From a plasmid: DNA of 7,047 bases. The notes under the pieces were generated by a model that worked only from the letters and a program-made list of their open reading frames with translations, was not told the DNA's origin and ran no database searches. The position numbers were made by a program, and so were the translations under genes. The DNA lies in the NCBI RefSeq assembly GCF_053078305.1, contig NZ_CP166877.1. One strand, given 5' to 3'. Below are positions 3,210-6,100 of the stretch, one piece after another. Positions within the stretch are counted from its first letter, which is position 1. Every line of letters begins with the position of its first letter.

Positions 3210-3238
3210 TTGACACGGACAATGCTGAGTAGTAGGTT
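3210..3238 (+). promoter_or_regulatory. Colicin operon sigma70 promoter (-35 TTGACA 3210-3215; putative -10 TAGGTT 3233-3238)
   Basis: Consensus -35 TTGACA, a 17-bp spacer and an imperfect -10, immediately upstream of the tandem LexA boxes and about 80 bp upstream of the colicin ATG. This is the usual colicin promoter architecture. Confidence 0.7.
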
Positions 3239-3242
3239 TTCA

Positions 3243-3273
3243 CTGTACATAAAACCAGTGGTTATATGTACAG
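3243..3273 (+). promoter_or_regulatory. Tandem LexA (SOS) operators overlapping by 1 bp
   Basis: CTGTACATAAAACCAG (3243-3258) and GTGGTTATATGTACAG (3258-3273), each close to CTGT-N8-ACAG. The double overlapping SOS box is the hallmark of colicin promoters, and the arrangement is near-identical to the colicin E1 operator as I recall it. Confidence 0.85.
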
Positions 3274-3317: not shown

Positions 3318-4964
3318 ATGGCTAAAGAACTAAGTGGATATGGCCCAACTGCTGGTGAGTCTATGGGGGGAACAGGGGCGAATCTGAATCAGCAAGGTGG
3401 AAATAATAATAGTAATAGTGGGGTTCACTGGGGTGGTGGCTCTGGGCATGGTAATAATGGTGGTCAGGGAAATTCAAATTCATCTGGTTCTACATCAACT
3501 GTGATGAAAACCGGTGAGTCATATCTGACTCCGTGGGGTGATGTTGTCATTAATAATGATGGCCTTCCGGTGATGAATGGTATTGTTATGACAGAAGAGA
3601 ATTCAACTCTGGTTGATAATCCATTTGGAGGGGTCTCCAGAGTTCTTAATTCTTTAATTAGTGATATGCCATCACTTTTTGCAGAAAGCTCAGGAAATAA
3701 CAACAATAACACTGCTTCAGTTAATACTGCACCAACGAATGCTCAGGTCAGTGATATGGATAAGAGTTCGAAGGTGGTGGGTAATGTAATTAATGAAAAA
3801 CAAAAGCAGAAGAATAAAATTGCTACACAGATTAGTGAAAAACAGAAGAAAATAGAGGAGATGAAAAAAGTATTCAAGCATCATTCTTATCATGGTATCA
3901 CTGATCTTGAGAGGGATGTTGATGAGTTGCAAAAAAAATCAAATCAGCTTGATGCAGATATTAGCAAACTTAATTCTTATAAAAATACATTGCAAAGTAA
4001 AATTGGTGATGTGAATAAACAGAAGGAAGCTGAAGAAAAGGCTCGTGAAAATGCAGAGGTCGCTGAACATGAAACTCTTAATGAAGAGAAACAGGCGGTG
4101 GTGGAAGCAGAGAAGCGTTTAGATGAGGCGAAAGCTGAACTGGCGAAGGCTGAAAGTGATGTACAGAGTAAGCAAGCTACTGTTTCCAGAGTTGCAGGAG
4201 AGCTTGAAAACGCTCAGAAGAGTGTTGACGTGAAGGTCACCGGATTTCCGGGATGGCGTGACGTTCAGAAAAAACTACAGCGTCAGCTTGAAGCTAAGCA
4301 GGCTGAGTACTCCGCAGTTGAAAATGAACTTAAGAATGCTGTTAGTTTCAGGGATGGCAAGGCTGCTGAGGTAAAAGAGGCAGAGCAGAAATTAAAAGAA
4401 GCTCAGGATGCTCTTGAAAAGAGCCAGATAAAAGATGCTGTTGATACTATGGTTGGGTTTTATCAATATATAACCGAACAATATGGAGAAAAATACGCAA
4501 AAATTGCTCAGGATTTAGCGGAAAAGTCTAAAGGAAAGAAAATTCAAGGTGTTGATGAAGCTCTGGCAGCATTTGAAAAGTATAAAAATGTACTGGATAA
4601 GAAATTCAGTAAAGTTGATCGGGATGCTATTTTTAATGCGTTAGAGTCTGTTACTTATGATGAGTGGGCAAAGCATCTAGAAAAGATCTCTAAGGCTCTT
4701 AAGGTTACCGGATATTTGTCTTTCGGGAATGATGTATGGGATGGTACCCGGAAGGGATTAGAAACAGGAGACTGGAGGCCTTTATTTGTCACTCTGGAGA
4801 AGAGTGCGGTAGATTTCGGAGTGGCAAAAATTGTGGCATTAATGTTCAGTTTTATTGCTGGTGCTCCTCTTGGTTTCTGGGGGATTGCTATTATCACTGG
4901 TATTGTTTCTTCTTACATAGGGGATGATGAGCTGAACAAACTTAATGAGTTGTTAGGGATTTAA
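3318..4964 (+). CDS. cka: Pore-forming colicin of the E1/K/5/10 family; length and organisation best fit colicin K
   Basis: 548-aa ORF with AAGAGG SD 5 nt upstream. It has the three expected parts: a Gly/Asn/Ser-rich low-complexity N-terminal translocation domain, a long Lys/Glu-rich coiled-coil central region, and a C-terminal channel domain closely resembling the colicin E1 pore domain as I recall it ([59 protein letters not shown], then the hydrophobic hairpin [33 protein letters not shown]). Colicin K is 548 aa; the specific K assignment is from memory. Confidence 0.92.
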
Positions 4965-5251
4965 TATCTCTTTAGAGTGTAATATATGAAACTTGGCAAT
5001 CCTACTGGGATTGCCATTGCCAGGTAAAGTAAATAAAAAAGGTTGTATGAGTACCAAGGCTCTTTTTTTATGTTTGTCGTCTTTTGTATAAAAGAAAATA
5101 TCGTTAGTTTTGAATATGGGTATAGTAATACATGTATTGATGCAAAAAATATAAAAGCTAGAGATATATCATTGTTATAGTTAAGTGTTAAATATAATAA
5201 CCATGGCAGAAGTGATTCAGGTAAATTATGTAGGTAGTATTTTAGATACAT
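4961..5251 (-). CDS. cki: Colicin immunity protein (pore-former type, integral membrane)
   Basis: 96-aa ORF convergent with the colicin gene. It is very hydrophobic and AT-rich with about three predicted transmembrane segments ([12 protein letters not shown]..., [16 protein letters not shown]..., [23 protein letters not shown]). Position and opposite orientation between colicin and lysis genes are typical of pore-forming colicin immunity genes. Its stop overlaps the colicin stop in TTAA (4961-4964). Confidence 0.85.
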
Positions 5252-5275
5252 AATTTTTTCTTTTGTTGGAGGTGT

Positions 5276-5407
5276 ATGAAAATAGTGCTTTTTCTAATTA
5301 CAATATTATCCTTGTCAGGATGTCAAGCAAACTATATTCGTGATGTACAAGGAGGAACCGTTGCGCCATCTTCGTCTTCTGAACTGACGGGGATCGCGGT
5401 TCAGTAG
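5276..5407 (+). CDS. ckl: Colicin lysis (release) lipoprotein
   Basis: Not in the ORF track because it is short. Manual translation gives [43 protein letters not shown] (43 aa): signal peptide, lipobox LSG-C, and the conserved mature motif [11 protein letters not shown] typical of colicin lysis proteins. GGAGG lies just upstream. Confidence 0.85.
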
Positions 5408-5415
5408 AAAAGATC

Positions 5416-5441
5416 AAAGGATCTCTTGAGATCCTTTTTTT
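5416..5441 (+). terminator. Rho-independent terminator-like hairpin plus T-run at the end of the colicin operon
   Basis: AAAGGATCTC-TT-GAGATCCTTT inverted repeat followed by TTTTTTT, 9 nt after the lysis gene stop. The same motif occurs at the equivalent place in pMB1/pBR322. It overlaps the RNAII promoter -35. Confidence 0.5.
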
Positions 5442-5454
5442 CTGCGCGTAATCT
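5426..5454 (+). promoter_or_regulatory. RNAII (replication primer) promoter: -35 TTGAGA (5426-5431), -10 TAATCT (5449-5454)
   Basis: Matches the ColE1/pMB1 RNAII promoter context (TTGAGATCCTTTTTTTCTGCGCGTAATCTGCTGC), with a 17-bp spacer. Confidence 0.7.
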
Positions 5455-5467
5455 GCTGCCTGTAAAC

Positions 5468-5573
5468 GAAAAAACCCGCCTTGTGGCGGGTTCTTCCGTC
5501 CGATCAGAAGTCTTCGACCTCTTCTAATCGGCGGTGGTAACTGGCTATCGCAGAGCACAGGTACCTAAATTGT
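5468..5573 (-). ncRNA. RNAI antisense copy-number control RNA
   Basis: The reverse complement reads ACAAUUUAGGUACCUGUGCUCUGCGAUAGCCAGUUACC..CCGAUUAGAAGAGGUCGAAGACUUCUGAUCGG..AACCCGCCACAAGGCGGGUUUUUU. This gives three stem-loops and a terminal hairpin plus U-run, homologous in layout to pMB1 RNAI but with different stem and loop sequences. Confidence 0.8.
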
Positions 5574-5579
5574 CCTTCT

Positions 5580-5609
5580 AGTGTAGTCAAAATCAGACTG
5601 ATACTTCAA
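5580..5609 (-). promoter_or_regulatory. RNAI promoter (minus strand: -35 TTGAAG = RC of 5604-5609; -10 TACACT = RC of 5580-5585)
   Basis: Conserved with the pMB1 RNAI promoter (TTGAAG ... CTACACTAGAAGGACA) and correctly spaced from the inferred RNAI 5' end at about 5573. Confidence 0.65.
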
Positions 5610-6039
5610 GAACTCTGTTACCAACTTATAAATCTCGCTCTGCTAACCCGGTTACCAATGGCTGCTGCCAGTGGCGTTAAGTCGTGTCTTTTCCGGGTTG
5701 GACCCAAGAGAACAGTTACCGGAGAAGGCGCAGCAGTCGGGCTGAACGGGGGGTTCCTGCATACAGCCCGGCCCGGAGCGAACTGCCTAAGTCGCCCCGA
5801 GATACCAGAAGACGTGAGCTATGAGAAAGCGCCACGTGTCCCGCAAGGGAGAAAGGCGGAAAAGGTATCCGGTAATCGATATGGCGGGAACGTGGGGGCG
5901 CAGGAGGGAGCGATTCACCGGAAACGGTGATGATCTTTAAGCCACGTCGGGTTTCGCCACCGCTGGCGGATTTCATGGTTGAGCCGTAAGGCTCCCACAG
6001 ATGCACCGAAAAAGTGTCTGTTTTGTGAAGTCCGTCAGG

Positions 6040-6100
6040 GGGGCGGAGCCTATGGAAAAAGCGCCTCCGGCGCGGCCTTTTCCGGGGTTTTTGTTTTTTG
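6040..6100 (+). other. oriV: RNAII/DNA transition region of the ColE1-type origin
   Basis: GGGGGGCGGAGCCTATGGAAAAAGCGCC...GGCCTTTTCCGG is homologous to the pMB1 region containing the RNase H processing and DNA-synthesis start site. The exact switch point is not determinable from sequence alone. Confidence 0.5.

Follow-up and report, generated by a model that had tools for sequence, protein, structure and literature searches.

The DNA analyzed here, the window, is a stretch of 7,047 bp. BLAST identified it as a complete, rotated copy of NZ_CP046541.1, a circular E. coli plasmid (two pieces together give 100% coverage; identity is 100% across positions 5200-5700). With an identity of approximately 95% to pColK-K235 and to many other 7-kb colicin K plasmids, it is an ordinary ColE1-type colicin K plasmid. 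The genes and features of interest are compiled in Table 1; other genes annotated on NZ_CP046541.1 are rop, mobC, mbeB and mbeD. Upstream of cka lies a promoter with the -35 element TTGACA (3210-3215), a putative -10 element TAGGTT (3233-3238) and two overlapping LexA-like boxes, the first being CTGTACATAAAACCAG (3243-3258) and the second extending from 3258 to 3273, where it ends in ACAG. The -10 element and the second box were read by eye. A promoter with LexA-like boxes is what would be expected for an SOS-induced colicin operon, and the LexA boxes are followed by colicin, immunity and lysis lipoprotein genes in the order of an SOS-regulated colicin operon. Transcripts of this operon cross cki in antisense orientation before they reach the lysis gene. 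The stop regions of cka and cki share four nucleotides (4961-4964). In addition, a strong 10-bp hairpin (GGCAATCCCAGTAGGATTGCC-type) is present at 4994-5016, 30 nt past the cka stop, in the 3'-terminal part of the convergent cki. Neither strand has a T-run there, and the hairpin is a candidate for an internal T1 attenuator of the colicin operon.

Table 1. Position, strand and supporting evidence of the features discussed (window coordinates).
Feature	Position	Strand	Evidence or detail
SOS-type cka promoter	3210..3273	+	sequence and pattern CTGT-N9-CAG
cka, colicin K, 548 aa	3318..4964	+	ORF list; RefSeq annotation of NZ_CP046541.1
cki, immunity gene	4961..5251	-	convergent with cka; ORF list, RefSeq annotation
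lysis (colicin release) lipoprotein gene, 43 aa, lipobox LSGC	5276..5407	+	stop codon TAG at 5405-5407
four GATC (Dam) sites	5392..5433	.	starts at 5392, 5412, 5420 and 5430
hairpin, 9 bp, three G-C pairs, -9.3 kcal/mol	5416..5437	+	consensus scan and fold
RNAII primer promoter	5426..5454	+	identity to ColE1-like plasmid and CloDF13; invariant columns in 97 variants
run of seven T	5435..5441	+	U-tract of the putative T2 terminator, also promoter spacer
RNAII pre-primer to approximate origin	5462..6060	+	homology to ColE1-type replicons
RNAI antisense regulator	5466..5572	-	Rfam RF00106, 53.4 bits (gathering score 47)

The replicon was assigned to the ColE1 type because the RNAI family of Rfam was found on the minus strand (5572..5466). 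The terminator hairpin of RNAI, at approximately 5467-5499, has a U6 tract and a predicted folding energy of -24.8 kcal/mol. The RNAII primer promoter consists of the -35 element TTGAGA (5426-5431), a 17-bp spacer (5432-5448) and the -10 element TAATCT (5449-5454). It was missed by a generic promoter scan, since TAATCT fits TATAAT at only three of six positions. Sequence comparison nevertheless identifies TTGAGA/TAATCT as P_RNAII, by its identity to the ColE1-like and CloDF13 promoters, its position relative to RNAI and its conserved columns in an alignment of 97 variants. The promoter faces the 3' end of RNAI, a homologue of RNAII and the origin lies downstream, and there are thousands of matches to ColRNAI replicons. 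We place the predicted RNAII start at G5462, assuming homology to ColE1, and the end of the pre-primer at approximately 6060, which we take from similarity to pMB1.

A hairpin begins 8 nt past the stop codon of the lysis gene. It is formed by the 5' arm AAAGGATCT (5416-5424), the loop CTTG (5425-5428) and the 3' arm AGATCCTTT (5429-5437), and the first three residues of the adjoining T-run pair with the AAA of the 5' arm. Of the -35 element, TTG is part of the loop and AGA part of the 3' arm. Direct reading of the sequence thereby bears out the central statement of an earlier note on this DNA, that the hairpin and T-run behind the colicin operon contain the -35 element of the RNAII promoter. 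The same note placed the end of the RNAI terminator about 30 bp away on the opposite strand, which is acceptable (the RNAI end given by Rfam, 5466, is 25 bp past the T-run), and it was right that read-through would enter the replication region in the RNAII sense direction, as this is the way in which escaping transcripts run. The stem-loop alone folds with -9.3 kcal/mol (z = -3.0; 2 of 200 shuffles were as good), and the fold of its 61-nt context has a z of -2.7. A consensus scan returned 10 terminator-like sites between 3000 and 6300, with 2.5 expected from shuffles. The site at 5416-5437 has a stem-loop with G-C pairs, which is at the weak end for intrinsic terminators, an adjoining U-tract and a position just 3' of a co-directional gene, and it is the sole site with the shape of an intrinsic terminator between the lysis gene and RNAII.

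The consensus scan scored 5416-5437 as terminator-like on both strands. The hairpin could accordingly be read as a bidirectional back-stop, which also ends minus-strand transcripts and so shields the lysis gene from antisense transcription and the immunity gene from read-through. The tail of the minus-strand site (GATCTTTTCT), its fold of -11.5 kcal/mol and the flanking tracts, A upstream and T downstream in the manner of a bidirectional terminator, are consistent with such a function. We consider it most improbable, however, since the very strong RNAI terminator (-24.8 kcal/mol, U6) would let little read-through pass and the minus-strand tail is interrupted (GAUCUUUU). Furthermore, G-U and A-C mismatches were compared in divergent variants as a test of pairing kept only in the plus-sense RNA, and they showed no strand bias.

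The hairpin coincides with a cluster of Dam sites. Four GATC sites are located within 42 bp, with spacings of 20, 8 and 10 bp; the whole plasmid contains 19 such sites, compared to 26.9 expected. The sites at 5420-5423 and 5430-5433 are the cores of the two hairpin arms, and the latter overlaps the end of the -35 element. These two stand 10 bp apart, about one helical turn, at the primer promoter. Because GATC is self-complementary, two GATC sites always make a 4-bp inverted repeat. This Dam-site basis of both arms was overlooked in the earlier note. Patnaik, Merlin and Polisky are said to have dealt with GATC sequences in the ColE1 primer promoter in 1990. Their study is among the references in the accessible part of a recent preprint (bioRxiv 10.1101/2025.02.19.639193). 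According to that part, the hemimethylated Dam pair of ColE1-like plasmids is bound by SeqA after replication and re-replication is delayed, and point mutations abolish this "eclipsing" effect (bioRxiv 10.1101/2025.02.19.639193).

The distribution of promoter, Dam pair and terminator shape was surveyed in related replicons. BLAST of positions 5200-5700 against plasmids yielded at least 5,000 ColE1-type records. Sixty rows were sampled evenly down the ranking, and in 30 of them homology started at 5408-5420, exactly where the hairpin lies; these are plasmids without the lysis gene, and a lysis gene was named under the match in only one of the 30. Anchors downstream of the promoter were used to find 181 loci, 61 on genome contigs and 120 in metagenomes, which represent 100 distinct well-anchored variants. 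TTGAGA was exact in 82 of these 100, and TAATCT or TAGTCT was found exactly 17 bp downstream in 87. A GATC overlapping the -35 end was present in 79 variants, a GATC at most 10 nt upstream of the -35 in 78, and both sites (GATC-N6/7-GATC) in 71. A MAFFT alignment of 97 variants showed invariant or near-invariant columns for TTGAG(A), for T-A-x-T-C-T and for part of the GATC sites. A T-run of at least five was detected in 37/100 variants, and the full terminator shape, that is a stem of at least eight pairs together with such a T-run, in 27/100.

Some of the loci showed peculiarities of their own. Identical pMB1- or p15A-type origins occur in assemblies labelled, among others, Streptomyces, Nitrospira, Methylobacterium and Spartobacteria MAG (L004, L007, L021, L034, L038, L045, L059, L062 and others); these origins are almost certainly cloning-vector contamination. 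In the CloDF13-like RNAII 5' region of a Lamprocystis purpurea scaffold (L017), a palindromic insertion of 66 nt is a duplicate of the first RNAI/RNAII stem-loop; either a real rearrangement or an artefact of assembly may be the cause.

We then related the terminator shape to the gene upstream, counting ORFs that are lysis-like or at least 60 aa long. A co-directional ORF ended within 45 nt upstream in 20 of the 27 terminator-shaped variants and in 21 of the 73 others (odds ratio 7, Fisher p = 7e-5; the ORFs are predicted, and the figure is inflated by shared ancestry). The terminator shape thus appears enriched behind co-directional ORFs, which is suggestive only. NCBIfam named one of the ORFs that precede terminator-shaped variants, a cytosine methyltransferase. 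Nine lysis-adjacent variants were flagged by phmmer, and eight of them have a stem of at least eight pairs and T7. The palindrome is shared by most ColE1-type replicons and is kept in many plasmids without an upstream co-directional gene or colicin operon, several lineages are without any hairpin, and several replicons have a co-directional upstream ORF yet no T-run. A metagenome contig (second match of L097) encodes a divergent lysis gene of 51 aa with the lipobox LAAC, whose stop codon TAA lies inside the 5' arm of the hairpin. Its promoter spacer is without a T-run, and the lysis gene is followed by the palindrome and no canonical terminator.

Conservation of the stem as an RNA structure was examined in the 97 aligned variants. 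No covariation support for the 9-bp stem was found beyond what relatedness gives: 74% of the cells were paired compared to 69.9% after shuffling, and the covariation score of 0.170 was no better than the 0.181 obtained with the partners slid by +1. Pairing is mostly lost where the arms diverge from the consensus, and pair 13:29 is a standard one in only 48/97 sequences. A few lineages have the appearance of compensation. The arms of L008 look compensated (GGAGGATC...GATCCTCC, GGAGG/CCTCC), those of the p15A-type L021 (AAGATGATC...GATCGTTTT) pair with G-U pairs, and L065 and L131 have lost both GATC sites and kept a different 6-bp stem, AATGAA/TTCATT, around the -35 element. These lineages are isolated cases and count as anecdotes.

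With a Dam/SeqA role, the conservation of the palindrome core across the family would be explained, and RNA structure need not be invoked. It is conceivable that the locus is a promoter with a Dam/SeqA architecture only. The inverted repeat would then follow from the need for two GATC sites at a distance of about 10-11 bp on the -35 element, the upstream A-tract would be a UP-like element and the T-run plain spacer, the terminator shape would be a by-product, and operon transcripts would end elsewhere or run on. This reading agrees with the survey, in which the GATC pair is family-wide (71/100) and the extended stem with its T-run belongs to a minority (27/100), with the missing covariation, with the clustering of GATC on a plasmid otherwise depleted of it, and with the retention of the palindrome in many plasmids where no co-directional gene precedes it. 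The experimental role ascribed to the origin-proximal Dam pair in the accessible part of the preprint (bioRxiv 10.1101/2025.02.19.639193) points in the same direction. However, a 9-bp stem with U7 placed 8 nt past a stop codon has the textbook geometry of an intrinsic terminator, the full shape is more frequent behind co-directional ORFs and occurs in eight of the nine lysis-adjacent variants flagged by phmmer, L065 and L131 have a stem without GATC, and L008 has its compensated GGAGG/CCTCC arms. We regard a purely promoter and Dam-based origin of the terminator shape as unlikely.

The explanation we favour, and hold to be probable, is that of an ancestral boundary element of ColE1-type colicin plasmids, in which promoter, Dam pair and operon terminator are combined in approximately 40 bp. 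Its first layer is the RNAII primer promoter, TTGAGA-17 bp-TAATCT. The second is the pair of GATC sites one helical turn apart, which flank and overlap the -35 element and would be hemimethylated after replication and bound by SeqA. As a third layer, the extension of the repeat by AAAGG...CCTTT, together with the T7 in the promoter spacer, would yield an intrinsic terminator in RNA arriving from upstream. Hairpin and T7, located 8 nt past the lysis stop, would represent the distal T2 terminator of the operon; the likely job of this terminator is to end the SOS-induced cka-ckl transcripts, and it would probably also stabilise their 3' end. This would leave RNAII to be initiated at its own promoter and to have a defined 5' end. 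The A3/T3 plus T7 extension, which is seen in the ColE1/ColK/CloDF13 lineage and in some others, would serve whatever gene is located upstream. The sequence comparison establishes the anatomy, its conservation and the identity of the promoter, and termination at this site, its efficiency and any consequence of leakage for replication are inferred from these.

The AGA of the -35 element and the TCC of the Dam site leave the 3' arm of this boundary element no freedom, so that its stem is limited to three G-C pairs and is weak; termination is thus probably incomplete. The present analysis adds the view of approximately 40 bp with three overlapping codes, those of the primer promoter, the Dam/SeqA pair and the operon terminator, and with such an overlap the terminator stem cannot be strong. 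A point against a terminator is that the A-tract at -59 to -39 and the T-rich spacer could be UP-like features of the promoter.

Partial read-through of a stem of -9.3 kcal/mol is plausible. The earlier note regarded read-through from the SOS-induced colicin promoter as a built-in route for DNA damage to perturb copy-number control. A measurable share of the SOS transcripts might continue as RNAII-sense RNA with an extended 5' end, or might be held up at the -35 element and spacer. The few cells with an active colicin promoter would then have an altered primer supply and RNAI synthesis and hence an altered copy number, either as a gene-dosage feed-forward or as a shut-off; this coupling would be common to ColE1, ColK and CloDF13. 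We consider this chain of events rather improbable. Very doubtful, in our view, is a deliberately leaky terminator, by which SOS colicin transcription would enter the RNAII/RNAI region and change copy number as an adaptive coupling, for example by amplifying gene dosage in cells already set to release colicin. Such leakiness fits the weak stem (-9.3 compared to -24.8 kcal/mol for the RNAI terminator), the strong LexA-controlled promoter 2.2 kb upstream and the lack of any other canonical terminator from the lysis gene to RNAII, but the same sequence is kept in replicons without an SOS operon, and the overlap with the -35 element explains the weak stem with no need for selection for leakiness.

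The rate of RNAII-sense transcription sets ColE1 copy number: swapping the priming promoter tunes it from 1 to approximately 800, and a priming-to-inhibitor ratio near 1 leads to runaway replication (PMC9263177). In our minimum-free-energy folds, which are weakly informative, transcripts extended at their 5' end keep all 36 pairs of the native RNAII 5' stem-loops in two of three extensions and 22/36 in the third. Other observations count against the coupling, or at least against its sign. Stueber and Bujard reportedly found in 1982 that strong transcription into ColE1 origins interferes with replication, and according to the literature ColE1-type plasmids with higher transcriptional activity replicate less efficiently within cells. 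Moreover, cells induced for colicin lyse, which would limit any benefit.

A search of the searchable literature returned no SOS read-through, copy-number data or 3'-end mapping for this or related plasmids. The coupling of DNA damage to copy number is a reasonable hypothesis, reached purely by inference, and the terminator at this locus is more simply understood as an insulator of the primer promoter than as a link between this promoter and the SOS response. If leakage did alter copy number in SOS-induced cells, colicin induction would be linked to replication control across the plasmid family. It would also be relevant to vector design, as pUC and pBR322 origins carry the same element at their upstream edge.

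The same element is present in the classical colicin plasmids. In a four-way alignment a block of approximately 75 nt (5380-5454), which takes in the last eight lysis codons and extends as far as the -10 element, was identical in the window, pColK-K235, a ColE1-like 6,647-bp plasmid and CloDF13 except for one loop base. This identity extends to the synonymous sites of the last eight lysis codons, and the flanks, that is the body of the lysis gene and the RNAI/RNAII stem-loops, are only approximately 75-90% identical. The block could correspond to an extended promoter/SeqA region or to a recombination junction; both are possible. The lysis stop codon is followed by AAAAGATCAAAGGATCTTCTTGAGATCCTTTTTTTCTGCGCGTAATCT in the ColE1-like plasmid, CloDF13 and pColK-K235. 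By this sequence identity the element is an old shared block that is not peculiar to the plasmid studied here. Judged by identity to the classical plasmids and by titles and citations, the overlap of lysis terminator and RNAII promoter is an already known, long-sequenced layout of ColE1-type colicin plasmids; a statement of the overlap of T2 and P_RNAII was not found in the searchable literature, the classical papers being outside this search. Compared to pColK-K235, the ColE1-like plasmid and CloDF13, the window is without one loop T at 5424-5426 (GGATCTCTTGAG versus GGATCTTCTTGAG), which reduces the GATC-GATC spacing from 11 to 10 bp and leaves a loop of 4 nt. The variant with a loop one T short was also seen in a few metagenome loci (L083, L117, L177).

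Vector-derived contigs with a pMB1 origin retain the element through the TAG of the lost lysis gene. In pBR322-type contigs the sequence ccactgagcgtcagacccc upstream of the hairpin was considered as a remnant of the lysis gene and rejected, because only "gtag" of that gene is left; we take ccactgagcgtcagacccc to be the Tn3 inverted repeat. In a vector-like contig (L004, minus strand, approximately 1455-1600) a further hairpin, AAAAGGATCTAGGTGAAGATCCTTTTTGATAATCTC, is located 98 bp upstream of the one at the origin and is very similar to it. This hairpin, which is found in pBR322/pUC-type contigs, shares AAAGGATCT...AGATCCTTTTT with the origin hairpin and has TAATCT a little further on. It presumably belongs to the 3' flank of Tn3 bla, and the similarity could reflect either convergence or an old exchange of sequence between a ColE1-type replicon and Tn3.

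The closest known system is the junction of kil and RNAII in ColE1/pMB1. Its sequence, ...GCGGTTCAGTAG AAAAGATCAAAGGATCTTCTTGAGATCCTTTTTTTCTGCGCGTAATCT..., is identical between the window and the ColE1-like 6,647-bp plasmid, and both have the same -35 and -10 elements, spacer, T7 run and three GATC sites. The window differs in a loop that is 1 nt shorter (CTTG versus TTCTTG-type). The gene upstream encodes colicin K instead of colicin E1, and the RNAI/RNAII stem-loops differ, so that incompatibility specificity differs as well. This junction is also the left edge of the "ori" fragment of pBR322 and pUC. In CloDF13 the same block of approximately 75 nt is located behind gene H (lysis) of the cloacin operon, which encodes an unrelated type of toxin, and RNAI follows immediately downstream. 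Unlike the operon of the window, that of CloDF13 is nuclease-type with a co-directional immunity gene, and its RNAI sequence differs. Read-through across the CloDF13 origin as the means of expressing its genes K and L was considered as a parallel and dropped, since K and L lie beyond the cloacin promoter and on the other strand.

The origin-proximal Dam pair of ColE1-like plasmids resembles that of the window, as in both the primer promoter has two GATC sites separated by about one helical turn. The accessible part of the preprint treats the pair as DNA-level signals and makes no mention of the sites also serving as the arms of an RNA hairpin downstream of a lysis gene (bioRxiv 10.1101/2025.02.19.639193). 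A further parallel is provided by the distal T2 intrinsic terminators of ColE7 and ColA, in which a hairpin follows straight after the lysis gene, as in the window. We take the ColE7 replicon to be of a different type, in which T2 presumably would not overlap a primer promoter; unlike the T2 of ColE7, the terminator of the window is embedded in P_RNAII. T2 is an accepted feature of colicin operons, which has been proposed to end the SOS transcript and to protect its 3' end (PMC2896534, which cites Lloubes et al., 1988).
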